From Deltaproteobacteria bacterium (lineage in GTDB: Bacteria; Myxococcota_A; UBA9160; UBA4427), in assembly GCA_019310385.1 (NCBI GenBank), contig JAFDEK010000004.1, positions 476 through 64,475 on the forward strand: 64,000 nucleotides of DNA, in the 5' to 3' direction. Positions 17,604 through 60,417 of the stretch are shown here, piece by piece; within the stretch, counting starts at the first letter, position 1; every line of letters starts with the position of its first letter. The position numbers were made by a program, and so were the translations under genes. The notes beneath the pieces are model-generated. The model did not search any database. It was not told the origin of the DNA and saw nothing but the letters and a program-made list of their open reading frames with translations.

Positions 17604-17720
17604 GCTCTCTCTCCTTGCTCTCGCGCTTCGCTGCAGCGCTCGGCTTGCTCGGGTCCGGTGCCGGGGCGACGGACGCCACGGCGGGACCGTGAGCATCACA
17701 GAGGCCCGGAGCGGGGGCAA

Positions 17721-17789
17721 GGCGGCCAAGATGCGTATCCTCGCCCGCCGCCGCGAGGCGGCAAGATGCGTATCCTCGCCCGCCGCCGC
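17721..17789 (+). repeat. hairpin-repeat array A1 (2 units of 35 bp; core GCGTATCCTCGCC + GCCGCC-GCGA-GGCGGC)
   Basis: Cores at 17733 and 17768. It lies between the divergent SDR (start 17603, minus) and ilvD (start 17894, plus). Confidence 0.9.
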
Positions 17790-30798: not shown

Positions 30799-30820
30799 TG
30801 CTGTCCCCTATCCTGGCCCT

Positions 30821-30896
30821 CCGCCATGAGGCGGCAAGATGCGTATCCTCGCCCGCCGCCGCGAGGCGGCAAGATGCGTATCTTCGCCCGCTGCCG
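30821..30896 (+). repeat. hairpin-repeat array A2 (2 units of 35 bp), near-identical to A1
   Basis: Cores at 30841 and 30876 (the second is GCGTATCTTCGCC). It lies between the divergent PPIase (start 30798, minus) and SDR (start 30999, plus). Confidence 0.9.
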
Positions 30897-33177: not shown

Positions 33178-34017
33178 GTGTGGGCCGAGGCTGCTCCCGA
33201 GATCGTTGGAATCTTGAACTGCAGTGAGGATTCCTTCTCGGACGGGGGGCTCTACCTGCAGCCCGAGCGGGCTCTCGAGCACGCGCGGCGCCTCCACGCC
33301 GACGGCGCCCGCTACGTCGAGCTGGGCCCCGCCTCGAGCCACCCCGACGCGAAAGAGGTGAGCGCGAGCGAGGAGATCCGCCGTCTCGAGCCCCTGGTGG
33401 AGGCCCTGGCGCGCGAAGGGATCGCCACCGGGGTGGACAGCTTCCGGCTCGAGACTCAGCGCTGGTGCCTCGAGCGGGGTGTCGCGCTGCTGAACGACAT
33501 CGACGGCTTCGCCGAGCCGCAGCTCTGGCCCCAGCTCGCGCGGGCATCCTGCCGCCTGGTCGTCATGCACTCGATCCAGGATCGCGGTCGTGCCACCCGG
33601 GCGCCCGGCGATCCCGATACCGTGCTCGAGCGGATCGAGTCCTTCTTCGCGGAGCGGCTGGCGGGCCTCGAGGCCGCCGGCGTCGCTCGGGACCGGCTGA
33701 TCCTCGACCCGGGCATGGGTTTCTTCCTGGGCGTAAAGCCCGACTCCTCCCTGGCGGTCCTGCGCGGCCTGGGCCGACTGCGCGAGCGCTTCGGGCTCCC
33801 GCTGCTGGTGTCCGTGTCGCGCAAGTCCTTCCTCGGCGGCCTGCTCGCCGGCCCCGAGAGCGGCGAGTCGCGGGCAGTCGCCGAGCGTGGTGCCGGGACC
33901 CTGGCGGCCGAGCTCTGGCTGGCGCAGTGCGGCGTGGAGTGGATCCGCACCCACGACGTCCGGGCGTTGAGCGACGCGCTACGCGTGCTCCGCGCCGTGG
34001 AAGGGCCGCCGCCGTGA
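33178..34017 (+). CDS. folP: dihydropteroate synthase
   Basis: GILNCSEDSFSDGG, ...DPGMGFF..., ...SVSRKSF... are DHPS signatures. GTG start. Confidence 0.9.
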   Translation: MWAEAAPEIVGILNCSEDSFSDGGLYLQPERALEHARRLHADGARYVELGPASSHPDAKEVSASEEIRRLEPLVEALAREGIATGVDSFRLETQRWCLERGVALLNDIDGFAEPQLWPQLARASCRLVVMHSIQDRGRATRAPGDPDTVLERIESFFAERLAGLEAAGVARDRLILDPGMGFFLGVKPDSSLAVLRGLGRLRERFGLPLLVSVSRKSFLGGLLAGPESGESRAVAERGAGTLAAELWLAQCGVEWIRTHDVRALSDALRVLRAVEGPPP

Positions 34018-34085
34018 GGCGGCCCTGCGTATCCTCGCCGCCGCCGTGAGGCCGCCATTGCGTATCCTCGCCGCCGCGGTGAGCG
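34005..34085 (+). repeat. hairpin-repeat array B (about 2.5 units of 33 bp; loop GTGA)
   Basis: Cores at 34027 and 34060. The first hairpin GCCGCC-GTGA-GGCGGC contains the folP stop codon. Confidence 0.9.
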
Positions 34086-36946: not shown

Positions 36947-36961
36947 TACGTTCAGGCCGCC

Positions 36962-38215: not shown

Positions 38216-38217
38216 GC

Positions 38218-39381
38218 GTGCGGGTGATTCTGCATACCGGCAAGGGAGGAGTCGGAAAGACCACCATGGCGCTCGCTACGGCGCTCGGCGCGGCTCGCCA
38301 CGGGCACCGGGTCTTCGTGCTCTCCACCGACGCAGCGCACAGCGTGGGCGATGCGCTGGGGCGACCCATCGGATCCTCGCCGGTGGAGGTGGCCCAGGGC
38401 GTAGTCGCTCAGGAGGTGGGAGTTCTCGACGAGCTCGATCGTGCCTGGTCGGAGATCCAGGAATGGCTGCGCGAGCTGCTGCACGACGAGACCGACGAGA
38501 TGGTCGCCGAGGAGCTGCTGGTCTTTCCCGGTATGGAGGAGCTGATCTCCTTGCGCGCGGTGCGCGAGGTCGAGGCCACCGGTGACTTCGACGTCTGCGT
38601 GGTGGATTGCGCGCCTACGGGCGCCACCCTGCGCATGCTGCGCTTTCCCGATGCCCTGCGCATCTTCATGGAGAGCTTCTTCGACATCGAGCGCCGGGGC
38701 GTGCGTATTCTGCGGCCGCTGCTGGACAAGGTGAGCGCGGGCCGCCTGCTGCCGCGAGAGGAGTTCTTCGATGCCTTCGAGCGGCTCTACGGGGAGGTCG
38801 AGGATGTTCGCCAGATCCTCCTGGACAACCAGCGCACGAGCGCGCGGCTCGTCGTGAACCCGGCCCGGGTGGTGGTCGACGAGGCCCGACGCTCCTTTGC
38901 GTACCTGAGCCTCTACGGTGTCGCGACGGACGCCGTCCTGGTGAACCGGGTGCTCCCCGAGCAGGCCGCCGGCGGCTACTTCGCCCAGTGGGCCAAGCGC
39001 GAGCAGGAGGAGCTCGCCGAGATCGAGCACTGCTTCCCCGAGGTTCCCCTGCTGCGGGCTCCCCTCTACCCGAATGAGCTCGTGGGTGCGCCGGCCATCG
39101 CCGAGCTGGCGCGCGAGGTCTACGGAGATCGCGACCCCGCCGAGGTCTTCACGACGGATCGGCCCATCCGCCTGCGCAAGCAAGGCAGCAAGACGGTCCT
39201 CGAGATTCTCTTGCGCGGAGTGTCGAAGGAAGAGGTGGATGTCGTCGTCGCGGGTGAGGATCTCCACGTGCAGGTGCGCGACGCCCAGCGGCGCATCGCG
39301 CTGCCCGCATCCCTGGTCGGCTGCCCGGTCGACACGGCGCGCTTCTCGGGCGACGTGCTGCAGGTCGTGTTTTCCCCGTGA
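38218..39381 (+). CDS. ArsA/Get3-family ATPase with C-terminal HSP20-like domain (paralog 2)
   Basis: GTG begins 2 nt after the upstream stop. LHTGKGGVGKTT, STDAAHSVGD, DCAPTGATLRML. C-terminal TVLEILLRGVSKEEVDVVVAGEDLHVQV. Confidence 0.85.
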   Translation: MRVILHTGKGGVGKTTMALATALGAARHGHRVFVLSTDAAHSVGDALGRPIGSSPVEVAQGVVAQEVGVLDELDRAWSEIQEWLRELLHDETDEMVAEELLVFPGMEELISLRAVREVEATGDFDVCVVDCAPTGATLRMLRFPDALRIFMESFFDIERRGVRILRPLLDKVSAGRLLPREEFFDAFERLYGEVEDVRQILLDNQRTSARLVVNPARVVVDEARRSFAYLSLYGVATDAVLVNRVLPEQAAGGYFAQWAKREQEELAEIEHCFPEVPLLRAPLYPNELVGAPAIAELAREVYGDRDPAEVFTTDRPIRLRKQGSKTVLEILLRGVSKEEVDVVVAGEDLHVQVRDAQRRIALPASLVGCPVDTARFSGDVLQVVFSP

Positions 39382-39427
39382 ACGGCGGCGAGACACCGAT
39401 CCGCCGCCGCTTGCCTCCGGCCCCCCC

Positions 39428-40354
39428 GTGACCCGAACCGAACACGCCCGGGATGAAGAGCCGCTCCGGGATTTCCTACGCGTCGATCCGGAGGGCCTGC
39501 CTTGGGATCCCTCGGCGCCGCCGCGTCGTATCGTCAGCCTGGTGCCGAGCATTACCGAGTCGCTCTTCGCGCTGGGCTTGGGGGATCGCCTCGTCGCCGT
39601 GACGCAGTGGTGTGTGCATCCCGCCGACGGGGTGGCGGAGCTGCCCAAGGTGGGAGGGACGAAGAACCCCGATCTCGCGGCCATCACCGCCCTGGTACCG
39701 GAGCTCGTGATCGCCAACCACGAGGAGAACACCCACCGCGCCGTCACGCGCCTCGAAGCCGCGGGTGTCCCCGTCTGGGTCACCTACCCGCGGCGCGTTC
39801 GCGACGGGGCGCGGCTGCTCGCCGAGCTGGCGCAGCTCGGCGGCGAGTCCGGACGCGAGCGCTGCGCCCGGGTGGTGGAGGAGGTCGCGGCCGAGCTCGA
39901 GGCGGCCGAGCAGCGACTTGCCGAGCGCTCCGCTGGCGCAGCCGCTTCCGCGCCCCGGATCTTCTGCCCCATCTGGCGCGATCCGTGGATGACCGTGGGA
40001 CGCGACACCTACGTTCACGACATGCTCGAGCTGTGCGGCGGAGCCAACGTCTTCGCGGACGCAGGAGACCGTCGCTATCCGGTGGTCGATGTCGAGGTCA
40101 TCGTGGCGTCGGCTCCGGACATCGTTCTGCTGCCCGACGAGCCCTATGCGTTCGGACCCGAGGAGCGCCGGGAGCTCGAGGCCCTCGCGCTCCCGGCGGC
40201 GCGCAGCGGGCGGATCCACCTGATCGACGGCACTTGGGTGTCGTGGTACGGTCCGCGAATCGGGCCCGCGATCCGTGTATTGGGGGGGCTGATTGCGGAT
40301 AGACCGGCCGGGCGCACGCGTCCCGCAGCGCAGTCGCGGCGTCAAAGCGGGTGA
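39428..40354 (+). CDS. BtuF/TroA-like (helical-backbone) binding protein without signal peptide, possible cobalamin-binding protein
   Basis: RIVSLVPSITESLFALGLGDRLVAVT...PDLAAITALVPELVIAN... fits the class III periplasmic-binding-protein fold. No export signal is visible. GTG start is inferred. Confidence 0.7.
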   Translation: MTRTEHARDEEPLRDFLRVDPEGLPWDPSAPPRRIVSLVPSITESLFALGLGDRLVAVTQWCVHPADGVAELPKVGGTKNPDLAAITALVPELVIANHEENTHRAVTRLEAAGVPVWVTYPRRVRDGARLLAELAQLGGESGRERCARVVEEVAAELEAAEQRLAERSAGAAASAPRIFCPIWRDPWMTVGRDTYVHDMLELCGGANVFADAGDRRYPVVDVEVIVASAPDIVLLPDEPYAFGPEERRELEALALPAARSGRIHLIDGTWVSWYGPRIGPAIRVLGGLIADRPAGRTRPAAQSRRQSG

Positions 40355-40591
40355 ATTTAGCCACGGACTGCCGGGATTTCGGTAGGGCTCGCCCCCCGAG
40401 CCACTCCGTATGGGGGCCGCCGGGAAATCATGGTTAAAGCCGTGCATCATCCACCCGAAAAGGAACGTGCAGGTCGTGGATTTTGGGCCCGAAAGACTGT
40501 GGGAAATCGCGGGACGACGTGGAGGGGCCCGGGACGTCTCGCCGAGCATCGCGCAAGTTGGTCTTCGCGCGTACTAGAGGTCGCTAGGGAA

Positions 40592-42217
40592 ATGAGAATC
40601 AATCCTCACACTCGATGGAGTGGGGGCGAAGACGCGAGGTGGCGAAGGCCGGCGCGATCGGGGGCAGGTCGCGGAGCTACGCTACGCGGTCCGGCGCTAT
40701 TGGCCGCCATCGCGATCGCGCTCAGTGCCGCGCTGCCCGCGTGGTCTGCCAGCGTGGTGGAGGTGCGGGTCGGTCGCCACGCGGAGTTTACTCGCGTGGT
40801 CTTCGAACTCGATGCGCCGGCGGGCTACAGCCTGCAGCGGCACGCACCCGCCCCGGGTATCTCCGAGCTCGTGGTCTCGCTCGATGCTGGCGCCACGGCC
40901 CAGGAGATCAAGACCGGCAAGGCGATGATCACGGGCGTCGAGATCTCGCCCCGGAACTCGAAGAGGTCGGTCGCGCACATTCGACTCACCCAGGATGGGC
41001 TGCGGGTGAAGGAGATGATCCTCGCCAGTCCGCCGCGCATCGTGCTCGATGTGCTCGGGCCGGCGAAGCCGAAGGCCGCTGTTACGCCGGCGTCGAGCAA
41101 GCCGAAGCCGGTCGAGCCCAGTGTGCCGGTCGCGACGGCAACGCCGGCGGTGGTACCCGATACGAGCAAGCCGAAGCCGGCTCCGGTAGCGCGCTCGCCG
41201 AAGGTCGTCGAAAAGCCCGCAGCCAAGGCAACGCAGCCCGCACCCGAGACCAGCAAGCCGACCGATCAAGTGATCCCGCCGCCCGTCGCGCCGGTGGATG
41301 TGACGAAGCCGGCGTTGGCAGAGGATCCTGCGACTCCGCAGAAGCTCGCGATCGCGAAGCCTCCAGCGGAGCCGCCCGCGACGAGCGGCGCTGTCCCGCC
41401 GTCGCCCGACACGACTACTCCGCTCGCCATGGCGAAGCCGCGCGCAAAGGTACCACCGCCGCCTCGCGAGAAGCGAGTGGCGCCCAAGCCGGTGCCGGCG
41501 CGCAAGGTTCCGGCGCCCGCGCCGGTCGAGGAATCCGCCTTCGACATGAAGATCGTCGGCGGAGGGCTCGCGGCCGTCGCAGTGGTGGGTCTCCTGGTCT
41601 TCGCGGTTCTTCGCCGCCGCGCGAGCTACGAAGTCATGGACGGCGACGAGTTCGACGTCGACCCCCTTGCGGCCGACAACCCCTTCGCGGAGCTGGGCGA
41701 CGACCTGGCGGTCGGCGGGGACGCAGCGCAAGAGAGCAGCGAATCGGCACTCGCCGGGGAGCCGCTTGGCGATTTTGGAGCGGAGGCCTCTTCGGGCCTC
41801 CAGGAAGATCTGTTCGGAGCCGCCCCTGCAGAGGCGGACAAGGGCGAGGTTCCCAAGGAATCCGTCGCCGCAGGAGAGACCATGGACAGCTTGAGCGAGA
41901 TGCCCACCACCCCGATCATGGATGGCGTGGGGGCAATGGTCGGCGCCGGTGCAGCCGGCGAGGACGTCATGGGCATGCTGCGCGCTTTCGAACAGCGAAT
42001 CGCAAGCCTGGAGTCGAGGCTCGACGAGGCGAGCGAGGCCAAGGAGCGCCTCGAGCGCCAGGTGGCCGCGCAGACCGAGGAGCTGCGTGTACAGCGCGCC
42101 GCCATTGCGCGCACCCAGCGCGCAGTGCGCAACCTGAATCGCCCGGAGGACGAGGCGCCGACGGAGCCGGCGCTGCGTGATCCCAGTCGCCCGGATGGTC
42201 CGCGCACCGACGTGTAG
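40592..42217 (+). CDS. AMIN-domain bitopic membrane protein with Pro-rich linker and C-terminal coiled coil
   Basis: Signal/anchor, then VVEVRVGRHAEFTRVVFELDAP...SPPRIVLDVLG (AMIN). About 200 aa of PxKP-rich linker follow. TM segment IVGGGLAAVAVVGLLVFAVL, then an acidic tail plus heptad region. Confidence 0.65.
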   Translation: MRINPHTRWSGGEDARWRRPARSGAGRGATLRGPALLAAIAIALSAALPAWSASVVEVRVGRHAEFTRVVFELDAPAGYSLQRHAPAPGISELVVSLDAGATAQEIKTGKAMITGVEISPRNSKRSVAHIRLTQDGLRVKEMILASPPRIVLDVLGPAKPKAAVTPASSKPKPVEPSVPVATATPAVVPDTSKPKPAPVARSPKVVEKPAAKATQPAPETSKPTDQVIPPPVAPVDVTKPALAEDPATPQKLAIAKPPAEPPATSGAVPPSPDTTTPLAMAKPRAKVPPPPREKRVAPKPVPARKVPAPAPVEESAFDMKIVGGGLAAVAVVGLLVFAVLRRRASYEVMDGDEFDVDPLAADNPFAELGDDLAVGGDAAQESSESALAGEPLGDFGAEASSGLQEDLFGAAPAEADKGEVPKESVAAGETMDSLSEMPTTPIMDGVGAMVGAGAAGEDVMGMLRAFEQRIASLESRLDEASEAKERLERQVAAQTEELRVQRAAIARTQRAVRNLNRPEDEAPTEPALRDPSRPDGPRTDV

Positions 42218-42317
42218 CCGCGTGCGCGGCGTCCCTGCAGCTCGCGCCGCTTCGCCACGGTCGCCGCGCCAGCGCGGCCCGCAGCGTCTCGCAGCCGGCC
42301 AGGTCGCTACGCCGCGC

Positions 42318-43214
42318 TCAGGGCGCTCCGTTTCTCGCCAGCTCGAGGGCGCCCAGGGCGCCGCCGAACTCGCCGTCGGGCAGGAAGTGGGCGTTGCGCC
42401 CGATCATCGCCGTCACGCCTTCGAGGACCGTCACGAGAGCGGGATTGCTGCGCAGGGTCGAGCCTCCGAAGACGATCGTCTCCGCCTGGGTCGCCGCAGC
42501 GAGCCCGCCGCAGATCAGAGCGACGTTTTCCCCGACCAGCCCCATGATGGCCGCCGCAAGGTGCTCCGGAGACTTGCCGTCGGTGTCCGCCGACGAGGGG
42601 TCGGAGGCCTCGGGGGTCAGGCCCAGCTTGCCGAACGAGGCCGCAGTGAGGTCTCCCGGCAGCGGGAGCTCGCCGCTCGAGTAGATGTCCGAGACCACGA
42701 GGTCCACATGGCGGCGGGAGCCCTTGCTGGCCAGCAGGCAGAGTTCTTCGAAGCTGTTCGCCCCTGTGAGCGCGGAGCCGAGACCGAGCACCGTGCCCCC
42801 GCCCAGCGCGGTGCCGCCCACTCGCACTGCTCGGCCGCCGTCGATGAGAAGCACCGAAGTCCCGGTGCCGAGGGAGACCAGCAGGTAGCGAGAGCCCTGC
42901 GCGATGAGCTCCGGGTCGAGCAGGCGGTCGGCGCCGGCACCCCAGGCGTCGAACTCAGCCACCGTGTGGCTGGGCAGTTCGAGCAGATTCGCCAGGCGGG
43001 CGGCGCCTCCGCCGGTGAGACCGATGCTCGCCGGACCCAGTGCGCTGACCTTGGCCACGATCGGATCGACGGCGCGGGAAGGCATCAGCTCGAGGTGGTA
43101 GCGCCCCTCGTGGTCGCGCTGGGCGATCTTCGTCAGGGTGGCGCCGAGATCCACTCCGACGGCGGGCGCGCGGCCCTGGCGGCCGCTGGATATCGGGGAT
43201 CGCGAACTCTCCAT
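42318..43214 (-). CDS. type II pantothenate kinase-like (ASKHA/Fumble fold) protein
   Basis: An internal ATG at 43214 gives VGVDLGATLTKIA, LTGGGAARL, LVSLGTGTSVLLIDG, GGTALGGGTVLGLG and DLVVSDIY, matching the PanK-II motif order. Confidence 0.75.
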   Translation of the reverse strand: MESSRSPISSGRQGRAPAVGVDLGATLTKIAQRDHEGRYHLELMPSRAVDPIVAKVSALGPASIGLTGGGAARLANLLELPSHTVAEFDAWGAGADRLLDPELIAQGSRYLLVSLGTGTSVLLIDGGRAVRVGGTALGGGTVLGLGSALTGANSFEELCLLASKGSRRHVDLVVSDIYSSGELPLPGDLTAASFGKLGLTPEASDPSSADTDGKSPEHLAAAIMGLVGENVALICGGLAAATQAETIVFGGSTLRSNPALVTVLEGVTAMIGRNAHFLPDGEFGGALGALELARNGAP

Positions 43215-43295
43215 CCGCCTTCTCTCCGGCCCCCCGGGTTTGGCTAATGTCTTTTTGATTCGGTGGGTTACATTCCCACCCGGAACTCTGCCGCC

Positions 43296-45326
43296 ATGTA
43301 TACCGCGTTTTACGGGCTTCGCGAGAAGCCTTTCTCCCTGAGCCCCGACCCCCGTTTTCTGTACCTCGCGGACTCTCACCGTGAGGCGCTCGCGCATCTC
43401 TTGTACGGAATCGACCAGGGCGAAGGCTTCATGGCGATCACCGGTGAGGTGGGGACCGGGAAGACCACCATCTGCCGCACCCTGCTCGAGCGGCTCGGGT
43501 CCGGGACCGAGGTCGCCTTTCTCTTCAACCCCAGCCGCTCGGCCGCGGAGCTGCTGCAGTCCATCGCGGTCGAGTTCGGACTCAGTGGCGGCGGTCAGAG
43601 CCGCCACGAGCTCAACGATCAGCTGAATCGCTTCCTGCTCCGCAAGCGGAGCGAAGGCAACAAGGTGTTGCTGATCGTCGACGAGGCGCAGAACCTCGGG
43701 TCCGACACCCTCGAGGAGATCCGGCTGCTCTCCAATCTCGAGACCTCGACCTCGAAGTTGATCCAGATTCTGCTCCTCGGACAGCCGGAGCTCGACCGCA
43801 AGCTGGACTCGGACGAGCTGCGGCAGCTGCGCCAGCGCATCAGCGTGCGCTGGAACCTCGCTCCCCTGTCGCGGCGGGAGACCGCCGATTACGTGCGTCA
43901 CCGCTTGAAGGTGGCGGCCGGCGCCGAGCGCGAGATCTTCGACGCCGGCGCCCTCGAGGAGATCCACCGGCGCAGCCGGGGCATCCCGCGGCTCGTCAAC
44001 GTCTTGTGTGACCGCAGCTTGCTCGCCGGCTATGCGGACGGAGTACACGGAATCGGGGCGAAGCTCGTGAAGCGGGCCGCGCGGGAGATCCCCGACACGA
44101 CATCGCGTCAGCGCGCACGATCGCCGCGCACTGCTTCGAGGCGCCGGGCCGGCCTCGCGGCCGGGGTCGTCGCGGCTGCGCTGCTGGCGGGCTTCATCGT
44201 CGGCGAGCGAGCGGGGCTCTTGAGCGAGGCGGCGGTATGGAGCCACGAGACCGTGGGCGAGAGCCGCTTCATGGGCATGCTGACGCGCTCCGGTGCGCAA
44301 AGCGACGAGCCCGTCGACCCGGGCGCGCCTGGTGAGCAACAGGGAATGGGCGGCCCGGGGATGGGCGGCCCGGATGTGCGACTACTCGAGGCGGTCGATG
44401 CCGCGGCGGTCCACGTGCCGGTCTCGTCGCCTCCTCCCCTGCAGGCCGCGCTGCAGCCGGATTCCATACCCTCGGTTCAGGAGGCCGTGGGCAGTCGGGG
44501 TGAGCGGCTGCTCAACACCCAGCCCGGGAGCTTCCTCGGGCGGATGCTGGACGCTCAGGGTGTCGCGTCGGCGCGCCTCCATGCCGTGAACGCGATTCTC
44601 GACTCCTACGGGCTCGAGGGCATCGACTCTGCGCCGGAATCCGACGAGGAGGCGCTGGCGATCTTCAGCGATCGCGGCTTCGGCCTGCTGACTCTGACCA
44701 CGCCCGACCTCGCCGCCCTCCGCGCCCTCGATCACCCCGCTCTTCTCGTGCTGCGCAGCGAGCTCGACGATTGGCGCCTCGTGGCTCTGCGCGGCCTGGA
44801 CGCGGACCTGGGGCTCATCGTCGGAGCCAACGGAGAGAACGAGCTGCGCGTGCCGGTGAGCGAGCTCGAGCTGCAGTGGGAGGGAGAGGCCTGGGTGGTG
44901 TGGGATGCCGTAGAAGGCCTTCCCGGGATGCTGACCCTGGGTGACGAGGGCGGCGGCGTGGCGTGGCTGCAGGGCGCCCTGACGGAGCTCGGTTACTACC
45001 CCGGCGAGGCTTCGGGCTTCTTCGATGGTTCGACCCGTGCCGGCGTGATGGCGCTGCAGCTGGATCGCGGCCTCACGCCGGATGGAGTCGTCGGGCCCCG
45101 CACCCAGATGGTCATCTACGCACTCATCGATCGCTACGGAGTGCCGCGCCTGACGATCGCGAGCGAGGATACGCTTGGCACCCTGTCGGGTGCCGGCGAG
45201 GATACGCTGGGCGATATCCGCGAGGACAGGCCGATCACCCTTCCGGCTGTCGGCGCGGATCTCGAGAGCGATTTCGAGGGCTCGGAGGCGGAGCCTCCCC
45301 TCTCGGCGGAGGATGGATCGCGATGA
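43296..45326 (+). CDS. gspA: GspA/ExeA-like AAA ATPase with TM segment and C-terminal peptidoglycan-binding domain
   Basis: MYTAFYGLREKPF, Walker A ITGEVGTGKTT, Walker B LLIVDEAQNL. PG_binding_1-like LQGALTELGYYPGEASGFFDGSTRAGVMALQLDRGLTPDGVVGPRT. Confidence 0.85.
   Translation: MYTAFYGLREKPFSLSPDPRFLYLADSHREALAHLLYGIDQGEGFMAITGEVGTGKTTICRTLLERLGSGTEVAFLFNPSRSAAELLQSIAVEFGLSGGGQSRHELNDQLNRFLLRKRSEGNKVLLIVDEAQNLGSDTLEEIRLLSNLETSTSKLIQILLLGQPELDRKLDSDELRQLRQRISVRWNLAPLSRRETADYVRHRLKVAAGAEREIFDAGALEEIHRRSRGIPRLVNVLCDRSLLAGYADGVHGIGAKLVKRAAREIPDTTSRQRARSPRTASRRRAGLAAGVVAAALLAGFIVGERAGLLSEAAVWSHETVGESRFMGMLTRSGAQSDEPVDPGAPGEQQGMGGPGMGGPDVRLLEAVDAAAVHVPVSSPPPLQAALQPDSIPSVQEAVGSRGERLLNTQPGSFLGRMLDAQGVASARLHAVNAILDSYGLEGIDSAPESDEEALAIFSDRGFGLLTLTTPDLAALRALDHPALLVLRSELDDWRLVALRGLDADLGLIVGANGENELRVPVSELELQWEGEAWVVWDAVEGLPGMLTLGDEGGGVAWLQGALTELGYYPGEASGFFDGSTRAGVMALQLDRGLTPDGVVGPRTQMVIYALIDRYGVPRLTIASEDTLGTLSGAGEDTLGDIREDRPITLPAVGADLESDFEGSEAEPPLSAEDGSR
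45163..45207 (-). repeat. hairpin-repeat array E (2 cores, 33-bp unit, reverse orientation) inside the gspA 3' coding region
   Basis: Read on the minus strand: GCGTATCCTCGCC-GGCACCC-GACA-GGGTGCC-AA-GCGTATCCTCGCT. On the plus strand it is in frame and encodes EDTLGTLSGAGEDTLG. Confidence 0.85.
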
Positions 45327-46237
45327 GCACCATCCTCAAGGCCCTTCGCCGCCTCGAAGACGACGAGGCCAGCCAGCGGGAGGAGCAGCGGACAGAGCTG
45401 CGCGAGCATCTGGTGAGCGATCCCCCGGCCGCGCAGCCGCGGCGTGTGCGCACCCTGGCGTGGCTGCTCGCGATCCCCGCGGCCGGGCTCATGGGGGCTC
45501 TGGTGGCCTCTCTGCTGCTTCCGGTGTTGCTGGGTCGCGATCTTCCGGACGCCTCTCCGGCGCCCGGTGCGGATGTGGCCTCGGTGTCGCCGGAACCCAC
45601 GCAGGGGGTCGACACCGCTTCGCCAGAGCCTGCAGCGTCCGCGCCACAACCCGCGCCACAGCCCACGCCGAGCGAAGGCGTCTCCCCTGCGGCGCTCGCG
45701 GCGACCGGCAGGGCCGACCCGCCCGGCTCCGCCGCGGTCGAGCGCGAACCCGCGACCTCGCTCGCCAGTGTCACGAGCGTCACGCTGCCCCAGCCCGCAA
45801 GGGCTGCAAGCGTATCCTCGCCAGAGCCCGCAAGGGCTGCAAGCGTATCCTCGCCAGAGCCCGCAAGGGCTGCAAGCGTATCCTCGCCAACGTCCGAGCC
45901 CACGGAGCTGCCGCCGGTGGCGGCCGCGTCACGCCCATCGACGCAGACGCGCGAGCGAGTCGTGCCACCCCTCGAGATCGAGATCAGCGACGACGTCGCG
46001 GTCATCGAACGCAATCCCGTGCCCGCGGTGCTGGTGACCCAGACCATCTGGCATCCCCGGGCCGAGCGGCGGGTTGCGGTGATCGAGCGTCTCGACGTGT
46101 CGGAGGGCTCGCAGCCTCTGCGCATGCGCGAGGGAGACCGGGTGGGCTCCCTGCAGCTCGTCTCCATCGAGCCCACCGGAGTGGTCTTCGTCCACAACGG
46201 CAGCGAGCTGCGTCGCCGCGTCGGCGATCGGCCCTGA
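45323..46237 (+). CDS. gspB: GspB/ExeB-like protein
   Basis: The ATG overlaps the gspA stop (ATGA). N-terminal MSTILKALRRLEDDE is like the GspB MSYILDALRK motif. One TM segment, a Pro/Ala-rich linker, and a C-terminal ...LRMREGDRVGSLQLVSIEPTGVVF... domain. Confidence 0.65.
   Translation: MSTILKALRRLEDDEASQREEQRTELREHLVSDPPAAQPRRVRTLAWLLAIPAAGLMGALVASLLLPVLLGRDLPDASPAPGADVASVSPEPTQGVDTASPEPAASAPQPAPQPTPSEGVSPAALAATGRADPPGSAAVEREPATSLASVTSVTLPQPARAASVSSPEPARAASVSSPEPARAASVSSPTSEPTELPPVAAASRPSTQTRERVVPPLEIEISDDVAVIERNPVPAVLVTQTIWHPRAERRVAVIERLDVSEGSQPLRMREGDRVGSLQLVSIEPTGVVFVHNGSELRRRVGDRP
45791..45888 (+). repeat. hairpin-repeat array C (3 units of 33 bp; AGCCC-GCAA-GGGCT) in frame inside gspB
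   Basis: Cores at 45810, 45843 and 45876. The array encodes (PARAASVSSPE)x3 in the linker. Confidence 0.9.
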
Positions 46238-46255
46238 TCCGGGTCGTAACGCGAT

Positions 46256-47161
46256 TCAGCGGACGGAGACGGTTCCGTTCGACGTTCGTAGCTTGATGGG
46301 CGGACCGCCGCGGCCGAGCCTGCCACGGACGTGACCGCCGGAGGCGACGTTCTCGCCGCTGAGCTCGCGGCTGTTCCGGATGACGCCGTTCTCGACCCGG
46401 ATGTCGACGTCGCCGTTTGCCTCTTCGGGCAGCTCGAGGATGATGCGGCCGTTGCTGGTCGCCAGCCGCACGCCCTCGCGTGAGATTTCCTTGAGCGCTG
46501 CTCGAATCATCCCGTTGGACGTCGAGGCATCGACGGAGCCGCAGTGGTCGCCCAGCTCGATCTTGCCGTTGCTCGAGCGGGCGACGAGACGGCCGCAGGT
46601 ATTGCTGCAGCGCACCTTGGCGTTGGCGGTGATGACCTGGACGTCGCCGATGACGTCACGCACGCTCACCGAGCCGTTGCTGGAGCGCGCCCGGACCGTG
46701 CCGCGAATCCCCTCCAGACACATGCGCCCGTTCGCTGAGGTGACCTCGACCCGCATGTCGGTGGGGATGCGGATGCTGAGGTTCACTCTCCCGTGCCGGT
46801 TCCACTTCTTGGGAATATCGACATCGAGCTCGAGATGGTCGCCGCTCCATCGGTTGTGGAGCTTCATCTCGTCGATCATGCTCTGGGCGGCCGCCTTCGA
46901 CTCGGCGCGGGACGACTTGTGGGCGCGGATCTCGATGTTCTCGCGCTCCTCCCCGACGATATTGCTGCGACCATTGGCGTTGTGGATGAGGACCGCGGCG
47001 CCGCGAGGAACGGGCAGCTCGAGAAGCTCCTCTTCCTCGGCGGACTCGCTCCAGGGGATGCCCGCCATGAGGCTGCGCAGCAGACCGCCCAGGCGCCCGG
47101 TGTTGCGGGTGCTTCGGTCTTCGTCCTCTTCACCGAACAGGCCCAGGGTCAAGCCCTCCAC
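46256..47161 (-). CDS. DUF4097-type beta-strand repeat protein (putative adhesin fold)
   Basis: It has repeated ...SSNGSVSV.., ..SSNGKIEL.., ..TSNGMIRA.., ..TSNGRIIL.., ..TSNGTVSV.. strands. The start is uncertain: the ORF opens at 47308 but overlaps the rhomboid gene by 53 nt, so GTG 47161 is used here. Confidence 0.65.
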   Translation of the reverse strand: MEGLTLGLFGEEDEDRSTRNTGRLGGLLRSLMAGIPWSESAEEEELLELPVPRGAAVLIHNANGRSNIVGEERENIEIRAHKSSRAESKAAAQSMIDEMKLHNRWSGDHLELDVDIPKKWNRHGRVNLSIRIPTDMRVEVTSANGRMCLEGIRGTVRARSSNGSVSVRDVIGDVQVITANAKVRCSNTCGRLVARSSNGKIELGDHCGSVDASTSNGMIRAALKEISREGVRLATSNGRIILELPEEANGDVDIRVENGVIRNSRELSGENVASGGHVRGRLGRGGPPIKLRTSNGTVSVR

Positions 47162-47255
47162 CGACGCCGCGTGGATCTGCGGGCGTCGTTCCTGCGTGCA
47201 TCGGGCGGCAAGTGGTTCGGCATCACGATCGCACCGTCCGCGAAGGCGGTCGTGC

Positions 47256-48014
47256 TCAGTGGAACCGGCGGTCGTTGTCGCGTTTCTGTCGTTCGCGGCG
47301 CTCTTCATCGTGCACCGCGCGCAACTTCTGACGCATCTGGTGGCGCTTCCACTTCAGCTTGAGGCTCTCGATGGTCGGGGCGCCGGGCGTCCGCCCTTCC
47401 CGCACGAGATAGATCCAGCCCACCACGACGCCGCCGAGGTGTCCGAGGTGGCTGACGTTGTTCGGCCCCGAGCTCAGCTCCATGAAGAGAAGGAAGGGAA
47501 TGAGCCAGATCGCCTTCAGGGGAATCGGCGGGAAGAGGAGCTGGATGGTGCGGTTGGGCCAGGTGAACGAGTAGGCGAGCAGTACGCCCATCACTGCACC
47601 GGAGGCGCCCAGGGTCGGGACCCCGAGATGCGGATGGTAGCTCGATCCCATGATGTAGGGCAGGAAGGGAAGCGTGGCGATCAGGACCCCGGCGCCGACT
47701 CCGCAGACGAGGTAGAAGCGCAGGAAGCGCTGCTCGCCCCAGGCGAGGGCCAGTGTGGAGCCGAACATCCAGAGCGCGAACATGTTGAAGATGATGTGGA
47801 GCGGCGAGCTCGGGCTGTGGAGCCACATGTAGGTGAAGGGGCGCCAGAGCTCGAAGCCCAACCACACTCGCTCGGGCGAAACCACGCCGTAGTTGGTCAC
47901 CGCGCCGGACACCTGCTGCCCCAGAAAGACAACGATATTGGCGATGATGATGCTCTTGATGACCTGGGGCGTAACGGGCGGACCGAAGCCGATCTGGTTG
48001 CCACGACCGTTCAC
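47256..48014 (-). CDS. rhomboid family intramembrane serine protease
   Basis: WRPFTYMWLH, catalytic GASGAVMGV, HLGHLGG. Confidence 0.9.
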   Translation of the reverse strand: MNGRGNQIGFGPPVTPQVIKSIIIANIVVFLGQQVSGAVTNYGVVSPERVWLGFELWRPFTYMWLHSPSSPLHIIFNMFALWMFGSTLALAWGEQRFLRFYLVCGVGAGVLIATLPFLPYIMGSSYHPHLGVPTLGASGAVMGVLLAYSFTWPNRTIQLLFPPIPLKAIWLIPFLLFMELSSGPNNVSHLGHLGGVVVGWIYLVREGRTPGAPTIESLKLKWKRHQMRQKLRAVHDEERRERQKRDNDRRFH

Positions 48015-48081
48015 GATGTGAGACTCCTCGGGGCGCTGATTCTACTCTTGCCTGCGGCGCACGGCGGCCCCGCGATCAAAA

Positions 48082-48110
48082 AAGCTAGGGATCTTCGATA
48101 CTTCAGTCAA
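48082..48110 (-). promoter_or_regulatory. sigma-70-like promoter for the rhomboid operon (TTGACT-17 nt-TAGCTT on the minus strand)
   Basis: The -35 is at 48110-48105 and the -10 at 48087-48082, with 17-nt spacing. It sits in an AT-rich patch about 70 nt upstream of the start at 48014. Confidence 0.35.
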
Positions 48111-48147
48111 CTTTGCCGGCCCCGCCTGGCGACATCCGGCTCATCGA

Positions 48148-48669
48148 TCACCCCAGGCGCCCCGCACGGCGCGCGGCGTGGAGCAGGGCCAGGCAGCTCT
48201 TGGCGTCGTCGATGGCTCCCGACCAGACCCACTCGAGGGCCTGGTCGAGGGGCGTGGGGACGATTTCGATCACCTCGTCGTCATCGGGTCGCCGGGGGAC
48301 CGGGCTGAGGTCGTAGGCGGCGAAGAGGTGGATGCGTTCGTCGGTGAAGCCCGGCGTAGTGAGAATGGAGCCGAGGGTCTCGATGCGGCCGGCCCGCTGC
48401 CCGGCCTCCTCCTCGAGCTCCCGCGCGGCACACAGTGCAGGCTCTTCGCCGCCCTCGAGCTTGCCCGCCGGCACCTCGTAGATTTCGCCGCCGACCGCAT
48501 AGCGGTATTGCCGGATCAGCAGCACCTCGTCGTCGCTGAGGAAGGGCACCACCGCCGAGGCGCCCGGGTGGCGGATCACGTCGAGGGTGGCGCGGTGGCC
48601 GTTGGGGAGGTCGACCTCCTCGGTCACCACCTCGATGAACGCGCCTCGGTAGATCTGCCGCTCTGCCAT
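48148..48669 (-). CDS. NUDIX hydrolase (ADP-ribose pyrophosphatase-like)
   Basis: An internal ATG at 48669 gives MAERQIYRG... Nudix box GKLEGGEEPALCAARELEEEAG. The longer ORF to 48906 is read through the repeat array. Confidence 0.9.
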   Translation of the reverse strand: MAERQIYRGAFIEVVTEEVDLPNGHRATLDVIRHPGASAVVPFLSDDEVLLIRQYRYAVGGEIYEVPAGKLEGGEEPALCAARELEEEAGQRAGRIETLGSILTTPGFTDERIHLFAAYDLSPVPRRPDDDEVIEIVPTPLDQALEWVWSGAIDDAKSCLALLHAARRAGRLG

Positions 48670-48720
48670 CCGGGGCTCCTGTCGGGCTCGGGGAGCGAGC
48701 AGGGTAGCCGTGGCCGGGCC

Positions 48721-48868
48721 GAGGCGGCAATCTTGGGGCCACACCCCTCGCCGGAGCCCGCGAGGGCTCGAAGAGCGTATCTTCGCCGGAGCCCGCGAGG
48801 GCTCGAAGAGCGTATCTTCGCCGGAGCCCGCGAGGGCTCGAAGAGCGTATCCTCGCCGGAGCCCGCCA
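48721..48868 (+). repeat. hairpin-repeat array D (degenerate unit + 3 units of 35 bp; GAGCCC-GCGA-GGGCTC)
   Basis: Cores at 48775, 48810 (both GCGTATCTTCGCC) and 48845. It lies between the divergent NUDIX (start 48669, minus) and hydrolase (ATG 48872, plus). Confidence 0.9.
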
Positions 48869-48871
48869 GAG

Positions 48872-49519
48872 ATGCCCGCAATGAAGCTCGAGCGCCCCGC
48901 CACCATCGCCCTGCCCGAAGGGGGCCGCGCTACCGGCTTGGCGCTGGAGGGCCTCTACCGGCCTGCCCATGACACGGATCGCGGCGGCGCCGTGATCGCT
49001 CCTCCCCATCCCCTCTATGGCGGCAGCATGGAGTCGCCGGTGGTGGGCGAGATGGCACACGGCTTCGAGCGCGCCGGCATCGCGACCCTGCGCTTCAACT
49101 GGCGCGGCGTGGGGGCGAGCGCAGGTGAGGTGAGCGGGGATCTCGCCGTCGGGCAGGAGGACTACCTGGCCGCGCTGGACTTTCTCGCGGACACGCTGCC
49201 GCCGCCCCTGATCGCCAGCGGCTACTCCTTCGGCGCCGCCGCGGCGCTGGCCGCGAGTGCGGGGCCCCTGGTTCGCCGTCTGGTTCTCGTCTCGCCTCCC
49301 CCGGCCCTGCTCGACCGTGATCGGCTGGCGGACTTTCACGGCAAGATCTTGATTGCCACCGGAGCGTGGGACGAGGTCGCGCCCGCCCGGGAGCTGGAGG
49401 GTCTCGAGGCACCCCATGCGGAGCTCGAGCTGCGGGTGCTCGAGGAGACGGACCATTTCTTCATGGGCGGGCCGGGGCTGCGCGAGCTCGCAGCGGCCCT
49501 CGTCGACTGGCTGGGCTGA
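48872..49519 (+). CDS. alpha/beta hydrolase (COG2945-like)
   Basis: AVIAPPHPLYGGSMESPVV and GYSFGA nucleophile elbow. The start may be ATG 48872 or 48881. Confidence 0.7.
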   Translation: MPAMKLERPATIALPEGGRATGLALEGLYRPAHDTDRGGAVIAPPHPLYGGSMESPVVGEMAHGFERAGIATLRFNWRGVGASAGEVSGDLAVGQEDYLAALDFLADTLPPPLIASGYSFGAAAALAASAGPLVRRLVLVSPPPALLDRDRLADFHGKILIATGAWDEVAPARELEGLEAPHAELELRVLEETDHFFMGGPGLRELAAALVDWLG

Positions 49520-49554: not shown

Positions 49555-51753
49555 ATGAACTGCGGATCCCATTTTCACCGCATCGGGCCATCGATGCTGC
49601 TCATCGCCGCGTTCGGGATGGCGCTCGGCTGTGCATCGATTTCCGGTCGGGTTCCGGCCCGCGAGGAGGCTGAGCGGTCTGTCTTCTTCGCTGGCGCCCA
49701 GGCGGGGCGCAGTGAGGGTATCCTCGCCGGTGCCGGGAAGGCCGAGCTGACCCCCACTATCGGTTATCCGATGGGCGGACACTCCGCCATGGGACAGACC
49801 TCGCGCGGGCAGTTCGCCCGCCTCTACGCCCGGGCGATCTATCTCGAAGACCCCGACGGCCACGGCTTCGCCCTGGTCGCCACCGACCTGTGGTCCATGG
49901 CTTCCGGGCTCGCTGACGAGGTCGCCGAGCTGCTCTCGCAGCCTCCCTATGTCGCCCGCCTCGGCGGCCGGCGCCTCGGGCGCGAGCAGGTCCTTCTGAC
50001 CGCGACCCACACCCACCAGAGCCCGGCGCTCTTCTCGTCGGACCGCTTCTTCTCGGTCTTCGCCGCCAATGCGCCGGGTTTCGACCCGGATCTGCTGCGC
50101 TTCCTCGCAATGCGGATTGCCTGGGCGGTCACCGAGGCCGTCGAGAACGCCGAGCCCGCCCGGGTGCTCCTGGAGGAGCGGCGGGTGGGCGGCGCTTTCC
50201 GAAATCGGAGCGTCATCCCCTTCCTCGCCAATGCCGAGGCCGGGCAGGTGATGCAGGAGAGCGGGCTTGCCGAGTGCGCGCCCCACCCCCTCTACCCCGA
50301 TCCACGATCGTGTCAGGCCGTGGACAACCGCGTGCGGGTCCTGCGCGTACTGCGCGGCTCCGGGCCTGACGAGGGTGAGCTCATGGCCGCGGGGGTCTTC
50401 CTCGCGAGCCATCCCGAGACCCTGTCCCACCACCTCGACGTATACAGCAGCGACCTCTTCGGCGCCGTGGCCCTGGGCGCGGAGCGCCGCCTGCAGGCGA
50501 GTGCCCCGCAATCGCGTCCCGCTGTGGTGGCGATCTTCAACGGCGCCGAAGGCGATATTTCGGCGCTCTTCGAAGACCAGGATCGGGAAGACTTGCAGAG
50601 GATTGCAGCCCATCTCACCGGCGAAGTGCTCGACATGGCCTCGGGCGGCGGGCGTGAGGTTGGCGGCGAGATCTCATGGGCTTTCGACGCCAACGCACGC
50701 CTGGGGGGGCGCTGGCTGAAGGACGAGCTGGGAAACCACCGCATGACGGCGTGGTTGCCCATGACGGGCCGGGCCACGGCGGCGGGCGCCGAGGACGGCC
50801 CCTCGACCCTCCCCGGCTGGCTCTTCTACGAGGGGGGCCCCGGCTTCGGGCTCGGGCCCCAGGGTCGCAAGCTCGGCACCCTCGATGTCTTCGGCTGGCT
50901 GGCGCGAATCCGTCTGCCCTTGATTTCGCTCACCCGCACGGCGTTGATCGGGATCTCGCCGCCGCGAACGGTCGCTCTCGGCGTGTACCAGCTGGGGCCG
51001 CTGCGCTTTGCCACGCTGCCCGGTGAGTTCACCACCGTGATGGGTCGCCGCATCGCAGACGGGGTCGCCCAGGCTGCGGGAGTCGATCGCGCTGACGTCG
51101 TGCTCCTCGGTCTCGCCCACTCCTACGGCTACTACTTCGCGACTCCCGAGGAGTATCGATTGCAGCACTACGAAGGCTCGGGGACCTTGTTCGGCCGATT
51201 TTCGGGGGCGTTGGTCGCGAAGGACCTGACGCGGCTCGCGGGAGAGTTGCGCGACGCGCCCGCCGCCGGCAAGGAGCACCGCTACCTCTATCTCCCGTGG
51301 CTCAGCCCGCGCCTGCAATCCGACTGGGGCCCCAGGAGAATCGAGATCGAGCCGGAGCTCGAGGGACAGGACGTGCACGATGTGACGCTGCGGGTACCCG
51401 GTGACCTCGAGCTGGACTTCCTGCCCCGGGCTTGCTGGGAGGACGCCCTGCCGAGCTTTCCTGTCTCGGCCGCGCCCCCGAGCGCGGGCTCCGACGGCGT
51501 GACACCCCGGATCGCGATCCAGCAGCAGGGCAGCGCGGGCTGGCGCACCCTCGAGATCGAGCCGGGAATCCCGGAGGACGACGACTCCCTGCGCATTTTG
51601 ACCCTCGGCAGCCTCGCGCAGGGCGACGAGGAACGCACGAGCTGGTGCACCTACTGGATTCCACCGGCCCAGGTGGACCGGAGCAGGCCGCTGCGCTTCA
51701 AGATCATGAAGCTGGACGGGGATACGGTCGTTTCGGACCTCGCGCTTCCCTGA
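49555..51753 (+). CDS. neutral/alkaline ceramidase-like lipoprotein
   Basis: An internal ATG at 49555 (GGGGGGAG RBS). Lipobox MALGC. AGAGKAELTPTIGYPMGGH...LYARAIYLED...LVATDLW matches the ceramidase N-terminal domain. Confidence 0.75.
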   Translation: MNCGSHFHRIGPSMLLIAAFGMALGCASISGRVPAREEAERSVFFAGAQAGRSEGILAGAGKAELTPTIGYPMGGHSAMGQTSRGQFARLYARAIYLEDPDGHGFALVATDLWSMASGLADEVAELLSQPPYVARLGGRRLGREQVLLTATHTHQSPALFSSDRFFSVFAANAPGFDPDLLRFLAMRIAWAVTEAVENAEPARVLLEERRVGGAFRNRSVIPFLANAEAGQVMQESGLAECAPHPLYPDPRSCQAVDNRVRVLRVLRGSGPDEGELMAAGVFLASHPETLSHHLDVYSSDLFGAVALGAERRLQASAPQSRPAVVAIFNGAEGDISALFEDQDREDLQRIAAHLTGEVLDMASGGGREVGGEISWAFDANARLGGRWLKDELGNHRMTAWLPMTGRATAAGAEDGPSTLPGWLFYEGGPGFGLGPQGRKLGTLDVFGWLARIRLPLISLTRTALIGISPPRTVALGVYQLGPLRFATLPGEFTTVMGRRIADGVAQAAGVDRADVVLLGLAHSYGYYFATPEEYRLQHYEGSGTLFGRFSGALVAKDLTRLAGELRDAPAAGKEHRYLYLPWLSPRLQSDWGPRRIEIEPELEGQDVHDVTLRVPGDLELDFLPRACWEDALPSFPVSAAPPSAGSDGVTPRIAIQQQGSAGWRTLEIEPGIPEDDDSLRILTLGSLAQGDEERTSWCTYWIPPAQVDRSRPLRFKIMKLDGDTVVSDLALP

Positions 51754-60331: not shown

Positions 60332-60366
60332 TCGAACTCCAGTACTTAGCGAAACCTAGCCGAGAG

Positions 60367-60417
60367 CCGCCGGTCGCCGTCAGGCGGCCAGGCGTATCCT
60401 CGCCGGTCGCCGTCAAC
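60367..60417 (+). repeat. hairpin-repeat locus F (1.5 units, 33 bp; GGTCGCC-GTCA-GGCGGCC with T-G wobble)
   Basis: Core at 60392-60404. GCCGGTCGCCGTCA is duplicated 33 bp apart. It lies between the divergent mrcA (start 60331, minus) and gshB (start 60614, plus). Confidence 0.8.

Follow-up and report, generated by a model that had tools for sequence, protein, structure and literature searches.

How a repeat that also occurs in non-coding DNA comes to lie three times over, in frame, inside a protein-coding gene is the question raised by a gspB-like gene of a deltaproteobacterium (GTDB lineage Myxococcota_A, UBA9160, UBA4427). The gene is located in a stretch of 64,000 nucleotides of contig JAFDEK010000004.1 (assembly GCA_019310385.1, positions 476 to 64,475 of the forward strand), which we call the window. 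A sequence-only reading of this DNA had described three 33-bp units within the gene, likened them to palindromic elements that colonise coding sequences, and noted that the unit length appeared adjusted to keep the frame. Our analysis points to a different history. The units of the block are probably the most recent additions to a long-established head-to-tail array, built from a dispersed repeat that resembles repetitive extragenic palindromic (REP) elements, and this array resides in the disordered periplasmic linker of the GspB-like protein.

The array in the gspB linker and its orthologs

The perfect array, termed array E, is reported by Tandem Repeats Finder (TRF) at 45792-45889 with a period of 33, 3.0 copies, 100% matches and a score of 196. 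Its unit is composed of a 13-nt core, GCGTATCCTCGCC, and a spacer with the hairpin AGCCC-GCAA-GGGCT. Read in the gspB frame, the array encodes PARAASVSSPE twice and then PARAASVSSP followed by T instead of E, corresponding to residues ~157-189 of the product. The three in-frame 33-bp units of the sequence-only reading are therefore confirmed by TRF and by the single open reading frame (ORF), while its coordinates were one base off and the last unit does not end in E. An interruption of the gspB frame, which that reading had named as evidence that would speak against it, was not found: one uninterrupted ORF spans the array, and the conserved N- and C-terminal parts on both sides are in that same frame. 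The block also lies, as proposed, in a Pro/Ala/Ser-rich linker, and its residues have a predicted local distance difference test (pLDDT) score of about 47-49 in an AlphaFold2 (AF2) model, inside the predicted disordered segment. The G+C content at third codon positions (GC3) in the gspB frame is 0.87-0.90 on both sides of the linker and 0.60 within the array. The frame is thus preserved, but the block is unlike native coding sequence. All three copies are identical, including every synonymous site. Two decayed units precede the perfect copies in phase, with core-like 13-mers at 45744 (4 mismatches) and 45777 (5 mismatches), and a decayed hairpin remnant follows the last core.

Six full-length gspB orthologs with lengths of 242-311 aa were available for comparison, and their loci were fetched to give seven loci including the window. 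The closest ortholog, P0002 (locus L003), and P0003 are without the block. P0004-P0007 contain 1-2 intact 11-aa units at the same linker position together with several decayed units. Their units carry the exact 13-nt nucleotide core, so that a related peptide block devoid of the nucleotide signature, the other outcome feared by the sequence-only reading, is not seen in these orthologs. Compared with L003, the window has three additional 33-bp units, and L003 keeps one decayed core there. Core-like 13-mers in phase, at steps of 33 nt, fill the linkers in 6 of the 7 loci (P<=0.0005 versus codon shuffles), among them that of P0003, though it has no intact unit. From these in-phase decayed units in the orthologs and in the window we conclude that an array long resident at this site has recently expanded again, giving the three perfect copies. 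The proposed alignment with orthologs does reveal a block missing from P0002 and P0003, but it is no fresh insertion, and colonisation as a new event gives way to linker stacks of decayed units that have long been in place.

Identity at fourfold-degenerate sites of the conserved N- and C-terminal parts amounts to 0.62-0.68 between the window and other lineages, with 37% expected by chance, and to 0.91-0.95 within a cluster of five strains. The comparison shows that the linker array occupies the same position in lineages that differ at roughly one third of their fourfold sites. Within the five-strain cluster, the flanks of the linker are near-identical, and its interior differs by exact 33-bp indels, with decayed units replaced by pristine ones in the same register; the proteins measure 256 to 311 aa. 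The strain comparison shows that whole units are gained, lost and replaced far faster than the flanks acquire point mutations. Every pristine unit has a perfect stem and a core identical to that found across the genome, with decayed units as its neighbours.

A second in-frame array of the same element, array F, runs in the opposite orientation through the acidic C-terminal tail of the GspA-like protein encoded directly upstream, C-terminal to its PG_binding_1 domain (region GEDTLGTLSGAGEDTLGDIR). It consists of a core with 1 mismatch, the hairpin GGCACCC-tgtc-GGGTGCC and a further core, and the gspA reading is (S/G)EDTLGTLSGA. Orthologs have 1-3 cores plus partial units at this site, and their stems show compensated changes (GGCACCC/GGGTGCC versus GGCGCCC/GGGCGCT). 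In strain L001, two pristine gspB units possess a spacer that matches the gspA-tail spacers at 15-17 of 20 positions, compared with 10-12 of 20 for the gspB-type spacers of the sister strains. This likeness shows that a unit type was copied between the gspA and gspB arrays, which are oppositely oriented and about 500 bp apart.

By its IlvD relatives the organism belongs to Myxococcota, and presence of the core varies between relatives. Two Myxococcota relatives at 81-82% IlvD identity, L065 (21.7 kb) and L066/L067, have 0 cores at <=1 mismatch in 32 kb, compared with 2.7 per 10 kb in the window, and L003/L004 have decayed cores only. Some related lineages thus seem to have lost the core family or to harbour it in an inactive state. 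An unrelated tandem repeat with units of about 10-11 bp (GTCGGGCTCGC...) is found 3' of a rhomboid gene at L004 2830-2890, in the P0002 lineage.

Related arrays, unit length and host genes

The core motif has 26 matches at <=2 mismatches in the window compared with 4.3 expected, and none of 100 shuffles reaches 26. The same core is present in six other window arrays (A to D, F and G in Table 1), which corroborates the assignment of the gspB unit to a dispersed core-plus-hairpin family. All window arrays are organised head-to-tail. Their stems of 5-7 bp with 4-nt loops differ from array to array (GCCGCC, GAGCCC, AGCCC, GCACCC), and pairing is retained. Across 13 distinct units, 78.9% of the cells are paired versus 24-40% when the partner is slid; double changes occur in 4 of 7 pairs, and the covariation score was not attained in any of 500 shuffles. 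The hairpin of array D, GAGCCC-GCGA-GGGCTC, is nearest in sequence to that of array E.

Arrays A and B, located 13 kb apart, have 48 identical nt in common, while all other pairs of arrays share just the core (13-16 nt). This identity implies recent copying between the two loci. The site of array A is unoccupied in the closest relative, L063, with both flanks conserved. At the position of array D, relatives have one core in the opposite orientation and no hairpin (L002 3355-3380; L060 4205-4230), and the orthologous region is a 50-bp divergent NUDIX intergenic region. Four of the five intergenic arrays sit in divergent promoter regions. In array C, the stop codon TGA of the folP-like gene (34015-34017) is part of the GTGA loop of the first hairpin.

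The hairpin stem of array C encodes the last residues, GPPP, of the folP-like product. The plus-strand gene 3' of array D has its ATG at about 48873 or 48882 (MKLERPATIALP...). Single core-like 13-mers with one mismatch are found at 49716-49728 (+) in a ceramidase-like ORF and at 54124-54136 (-) in an MMPL-family ORF; these could be single-unit relics or chance matches. By inspection, a possible sigma-70 promoter from TATCCT and a possible CsrA-type GGA hairpin on the reverse strand were noted as well. A CRISPR-like reading was rejected, as the arrays have no unique spacers and their units are contiguous. Searches of Rfam (the whole window at the gathering threshold, 45000-49100 by E-value) gave nothing relevant, literature searches with the core string and its substrings returned just unrelated primers, and nothing was found in plasmids (BLAST with two array queries) or in viral contigs (scan). 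No RAYT gene is present among the about 50 ORFs of the window.

Is the length of the unit set by the reading frame? The spacers are of two sizes, 20 and 22 nt, which gives units of 33 and 35 bp. The 35-bp period of arrays A and D, already recognised from the letters, is borne out by TRF and by the sequence, but 33 bp is not special to coding DNA as had been implied: the cores of array C follow a stop codon, array G is intergenic, and both have 33-bp units. Non-coding DNA therefore contains both classes (C and G with 33 bp; A, B and D with 35 bp), and every array demonstrably within a gene has a period of 3n. These are gspB and gspA in the window and in all orthologs and a Spirochaetota-like lipoprotein ORF (all 33 bp), as well as an ABC-F ATPase from a metagenome-assembled genome (MAG) of Anaerolineae, in which the array, of 18-bp period, makes up an N-terminal extension. 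Arrays with 16- or 22-bp periods sit upstream of the first Pfam domain of neighbouring ORFs. With both sizes in non-coding DNA and only 3n within genes, a selective filter is indicated and no adjustment of the unit, as earlier supposed, is needed. In the 33-bp unit all six frames are open. The two frames in use yield small, hydrophilic and least disruptive peptides, while Arg, Cys or Trp abound in the products of the remaining four. A GC3-based test for intragenic location had little power because of the low-complexity flanks of the known intragenic arrays.

Beyond this lineage, species-representative genomes and metagenomes were scanned for two exact cores 3-30 nt apart. The scans returned 5 genome loci and 49 metagenome loci with periods of 13 to 43 bp and a G+C content of 49 to 74%, whereas a rough chance estimate is 0.3-1 matches for the genomes and perhaps 8-30 for the metagenomes. 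Since exact cores were required by the search, the shared core among these matches is partly built in. An apparently lower variability of the core compared with the spacer (4.4% vs 11.2%) was discarded as an edge artefact, the values for internal units being 1.9% and 2.5%. Independent support comes from several contigs in which an additional core or a further array is present beyond what the search demanded, and from a large subfamily with a 22-bp period (core + GCGAAGCAA) that recurs in many contigs. Thirteen of the 49 metagenome arrays are at contig ends, so natural arrays may be longer than the assembled ones.

Three of the contigs, L011, L025 and L062, encode a ThiI closest to that of Spirochaetota MAGs. 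They contain two arrays each, one of which is a 33-bp core-plus-hairpin array (GACAT-TCCG-ATGTC). The second array, with a 30-bp period, is 2.3 kb off in L011 and L025 and is located at a scaffold gap in L062. In L062, three 33-bp units (core + AAAGACATTCCGATGTCCAG) at 13882-13960 are in frame in the lipoprotein-like ORF, which reads them in a third frame as (AYPRQRHSDVQ)n. Loci L006-L010 have the core with an optional 5' G, (G)GCGTATCCTCGCC, in arrays with periods of 16-18 bp, and their MAG labels are Anaerolineae, Spirochaetota (L008, L010), Treponemataceae and Peptococcaceae. One of these arrays, L006 3660-3750, encodes (GVSSPK)n in frame; a strong Shine-Dalgarno sequence with ATG precedes it and the ABC-F ATPase domain follows. 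The arrays of L006-L010 may in part be coincidence, and the short-period ones from Anaerolineae and Peptococcaceae are possibly coincidental. Judged from the sequences, sharing of the core family across phyla is likely but unproven.

Two further groups stood out among the metagenome matches. In L032, L034, L040, L049, L057, L016/L042 and L045, a long stem (GGAGT.TGCGCGGC ... GCCGCGCA.CTCC) has one core in its loop, and next to it GTAG and a second core follow, often bounded by CTAG, giving a GTAG-tagged REP-like body plus core. In L023, L029, L037, L043, L044, L046, L048 and L059, arrays with 18-19-bp periods have a common 5' segment, GAGCGACAGCTCTGCCGCGT..., which holds the hairpin AGAGC-gaca-GCTCT, while their 3' flanks and their 5-6-nt spacers differ between arrays. 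This conserved 5' segment seems to belong to the element.

The start of the host gene gspB was placed at ATG 45323 because all orthologs begin at MSTILKALRRLE. It overlaps the stop codon of the gspA-like gene (ATGA), and the pairing of the two genes is the same in the orthologous loci. The gspA-like product matches AAA_22 (2.8e-29) and PG_binding_1 (3.1e-14) in Pfam, which is the architecture of GspA/ExeA. For the gspB-like product, identical to MAG protein JRG96_01645, the match to Pfam T2SSB scores 20.2 bits, below the cut-off of 28.4, and its profile found no match among PDB sequences. The AF2 model, built on 67 homologs, predicts an N-terminal helix (2-31), a transmembrane helix (54-70), a low-confidence region (~71-230, pLDDT about 47-55) and a confident C-terminal beta domain (236-300, pLDDT>90). 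Foldseek matched this domain to the GspC HR domain (3oss_C, TMt 0.82), Dickeya GspB (4wfw, rmsd 1.7 A), LspC/PulC and PilP, at a probability of 1.0 and E-values of just 0.03-0.06. On synteny and predicted fold, the name GspB-like is reasonable. A type II secretion operon adjoining the gspA/gspB-like pair is not recognisable in the window. The region 5' of gspA (36947-43247) encodes an ArsA-like ATPase and a protein whose AMIN-like match is weak, along with ORFs for which Pfam gave no match.

Table 1. Arrays of the core element, the parts of array E and the two host genes, with positions in the window.
Feature	Position	Strand	Description or evidence
Array E, perfect, head-to-tail	45792..45889	+	2.97 units of 33 bp, unit AGCCCGCAAGGGCTGCAAGCGTATCCTCGCCAG, in frame in GspB-like coding sequence (CDS)
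Core 1, GCGTATCCTCGCC	45810..45822	+	exact match; reads x-V-S-S-P
Core 2, GCGTATCCTCGCC	45843..45855	+	exact match
Core 3, GCGTATCCTCGCC	45876..45888	+	exact match
Hairpin AGCCC-GCAA-GGGCT	45792..45805, again 45825-45838, 45858-45871	+	sequence, folds, stem covariation across family
Two decayed in-phase units 5' of perfect copies	45744..45789	+	in-phase core scan, codon-shuffle control
Decayed hairpin remnant 3' of last core, GAGCCCACGGAGCTG vs GAGCCCGCAAGGGCTG	45896..45910	+	read from sequence
Array F, 33-bp period, in frame in gspA C-terminal tail	45162..45207	-	sequence; ortholog copy number
Array A, 2 units of 35 bp	17720..17789	+	divergent intergenic, SDR gene (-) / ilvD (+)
Array B, 2.5 units of 35 bp	30809..30895	+	divergent intergenic
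Array C, 2.4 units of 33 bp	34005..34083	+	after folP-like gene; cores non-coding
Array D, 3.4 units of 35 bp	48748..48866	+	divergent intergenic, NUDIX gene (-) / + gene
Locus G, 1.5 units of 33 bp	60366..60415	+	divergent intergenic, PBP1A (-) / gshB (+)
GspB-like CDS, 304 aa	45323..46237	+	ortholog starts, weak Pfam T2SSB, AF2 model, Foldseek
GspA/ExeA-like CDS (AAA_22 + PG_binding_1)	43263..45326	+	Pfam, ORF list

Origin of the array and competing explanations

For an old resident array that was recently re-expanded, local multiplication would proceed by replication slippage or by unequal exchange between identical units, whereas gene conversion, or else an activity specific for the core, would carry units from one locus to another. 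Within genes, selection would keep a unit length of 3n, a frame with small hydrophilic residues (PARAASVSSPE, GEDTLGTLSGA) and a location in a tolerant disordered segment. The net effect on the protein is probably a linker of variable length. Several observations weigh against this history. Plain slippage alone leaves the exact genome-wide core in fresh units of diverged lineages unexplained. By Pfam, genes for a transposase, an HUH nuclease or a recombinase are absent from the 64-kb window, whose genes are all of the housekeeping kind, and an all-versus-all BLAST of 784 ORFs from the fetched loci identified no protein family that recurs beside the arrays, giving generic ABC ATPase, SDR and orthologous clusters only. 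The site of array A, with about 70 nt of array in the window and about 37 unrelated nt in L063, has the appearance of a replacement and not of a clean insertion with target-site duplication. The placement of intergenic arrays in divergent promoters hints at a regulatory role that the proposed history does not address. In addition, we infer translation of array E from the open frame and the orthologs, and its copy number comes from one MAG assembly.

This last point leads to the reading of the block, or of its copy number, as a mis-assembly of a short tandem repeat. The source is a single MAG contig, and arrays do disturb assemblies, as seen from the 13 metagenome arrays at contig ends and from one scaffold gap at an array. 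However, the block of 98 nt is below typical read length, the frame is intact, and independent assemblies from other samples have a like array at the same position with in-frame differences of whole units, which makes an artefact very improbable. Still a little less credible is selection on the peptide repeat itself, as a spacer or as a modified Ser/Pro-rich linker module, with the DNA likeness as a secondary matter. The linker is indeed rich in Pro, Ala and Ser, units containing SVSSP recur in the orthologs, and both frames in use give benign peptides. Against this, no synonymous site differs between the three copies, the block has a GC3 of 0.60 compared with 0.87 in the flanks, and close strains have anything from no copy to several, with the closest ortholog lacking the block. 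The DNA unit is also found in non-coding DNA and, reversed in gspA, it gives an unrelated peptide; the Spirochaetota-like contig reads the core in a third frame, as AYPR.

A less remote rival is that the arrays are primarily functional nucleic-acid elements, in which a conserved factor acting in trans would recognise the core where it is exposed as a single strand, either between stems or within a hairpin loop. This factor would be a nickase of the HUH/Y1 type, as in REP-RAYT systems and rolling-circle origins, or a DNA- or RNA-binding regulator. Through it, amplification would depend on the core, whose sequence would stay exact, and the in-gene arrays would be by-products or internal control sites of gspAB. 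Seven window loci have an exact core next to unrelated stems, and the same holds for the core of pristine units in lineages at a fourfold-site identity of 0.62-0.68. Decayed units stand beside pristine ones, so not all are under purifying selection, yet the new ones have the consensus. The patchy occurrence, with 0 cores per 32 kb in two relatives, is expected if a dispensable factor is required. Spirochaetota-like contigs have the same core, one of them in two different arrays, one metagenome subfamily displays it in the loop of a long stem, and the orthologous NUDIX intergenic region retains one inverted core; the location of 4 of 5 intergenic arrays in divergent promoter regions agrees as well. 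Set against these points are a window, and neighbourhoods of arrays elsewhere, without a candidate gene, the blank Rfam result, a likeness to relaxase and Rep nick sites noted by inspection only, and a core that is no better conserved than the spacer in internal units of metagenome arrays (variation of 1.9% versus 2.5%). A simple mRNA element is disfavoured because transcription runs through the array in sense in gspB and in antisense in gspA. Overall, we regard a nucleic-acid function of the arrays as rather unlikely, and the re-expansion of an old resident array as the probable history.

This history already describes an unusual arrangement. Two adjoining genes have in-frame arrays of one element in opposite orientations, where the usual descriptions are of single insertions, and the comparison of strains reveals birth, death and exchange of whole units with the proteins intact. 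The locus offers a natural example of a selfish or neutral repeat that feeds disordered linkers, with selection filtering unit length and frame. A wider proposal is that the core GCGTATCCTCGCC marks an undescribed head-to-tail class, a third tagged REP, in Myxococcota and Spirochaetota and possibly in Chloroflexota and Firmicutes, which would depend on a horizontally mobile or repeatedly lost enzyme that acts on the core where stems or a hairpin loop expose it, and whose 33-bp form would repeatedly build or remodel disordered segments. We put this forward tentatively and consider it doubtful. If it holds, the proteins concerned would include a spirochaetal lipoprotein and an ABC-F ATPase, the latter at its N-terminus, besides GspB with its linker and GspA with its tail. 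An exact core shared across phyla, if true, would point to a sequence-specific activity such as a nickase, a transposase or a binding protein.

Comparison with known repeat systems

In-frame variable number tandem repeats (VNTRs) and MIRU-type repeats consist of head-to-tail units of 3n length with polymorphic copy number, in linker-like positions or in intergenic positions that overlap gene ends. The gspB array is similar in being head-to-tail and 3n, with 33-bp units in an open frame and whole-unit indels that make copy number variable among strains. Ordinary VNTRs are locus-specific, whereas one core here seeds many loci with different spacers, and the spacers retain hairpin potential through compensated changes.

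Translation of REPs is known. Di Nocera et al. (2013) describe REPs that are wholly within ORFs and translated, with clusters encoding 43-82 residues, and REP ends that give stop codons to flanking ORFs (PMC3733652). The family described here likewise consists of short palindromic units that are dispersed over the genome and in part translated within ORFs, with short stem-loop units in the 20-40 bp range of the GTAG REPs, and array C supplies a stop codon as REP ends do. The GTAG class occurs mostly as inverted dimers (head-to-head or tail-to-tail), head-to-tail dimers being absent or negligible in the published families; the CGTC-tagged class, whose tag also has the variants TGTC and CCTC, includes the short Rickettsia palindromic elements (RPEs) and the Neisseria dRS3 repeats, has Spirochaetes among its hosts and has no known transposase (PMC3733652). 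In the short tagged REPs and RPE-4/6 the tag is GTAG or CGTC, the stem of 8-9 bp opens with A-T pairs (the first two in the CGTC class), and dimers are arranged head-to-head (PMC3733652). In contrast, the arrays described here are strictly head-to-tail, have a 13-nt core in place of a terminal GTAG tag and possess stems of 5-7 bp made of G-C pairs. Neither GTAG nor CTAC occurs in any of the seven window arrays, and inverted dimers are lacking in them. CGTC is found only in the regions of B, E, F and G, and inconsistently; CCTC is within the core, 3 nt from the stem. The window stems GCCGCC, GAGCCC, AGCCC and GCACCC and their head-to-tail order also differ from the stems and head-to-head dimers of CGTC REPs. 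Divergent regions hold most of the intergenic copies; in published REPs the preference is for convergent and unidirectional regions.

Elements of the RPE-1 type are single inserts of about 150 bp (PMC10969869). Like them, the present element is palindromic, lies in frame in unrelated genes and is tolerated in permissive parts of proteins. An RPE is a single in-frame insert of about 100-150 bp with a conserved peptide; here, a 33-bp tandem unit varies in copy number, and the peptides differ by frame and orientation. The likeness to Rickettsia palindromic elements drawn from the sequence alone thus holds as an analogy, while size, stems and dimers differ and the GTAG tag is absent. On these same features, membership in the GTAG REPs, the CGTC REPs and the RPEs was rejected. 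With REPIN/RAYT systems the family shares a conserved linear motif next to a hairpin of variable stem, and a distribution that is dispersed, vertically persistent and patchy among relatives. REPINs, however, are REP pairs in inverted order that contain the GTAG motif, and their RAYT gene can be identified. The window arrays show neither inverted pairs nor GTAG, and no RAYT gene was seen in the DNA covered. Translated palindromic repeats are an established category, and the family described here is a variant of it with defining features of its own.

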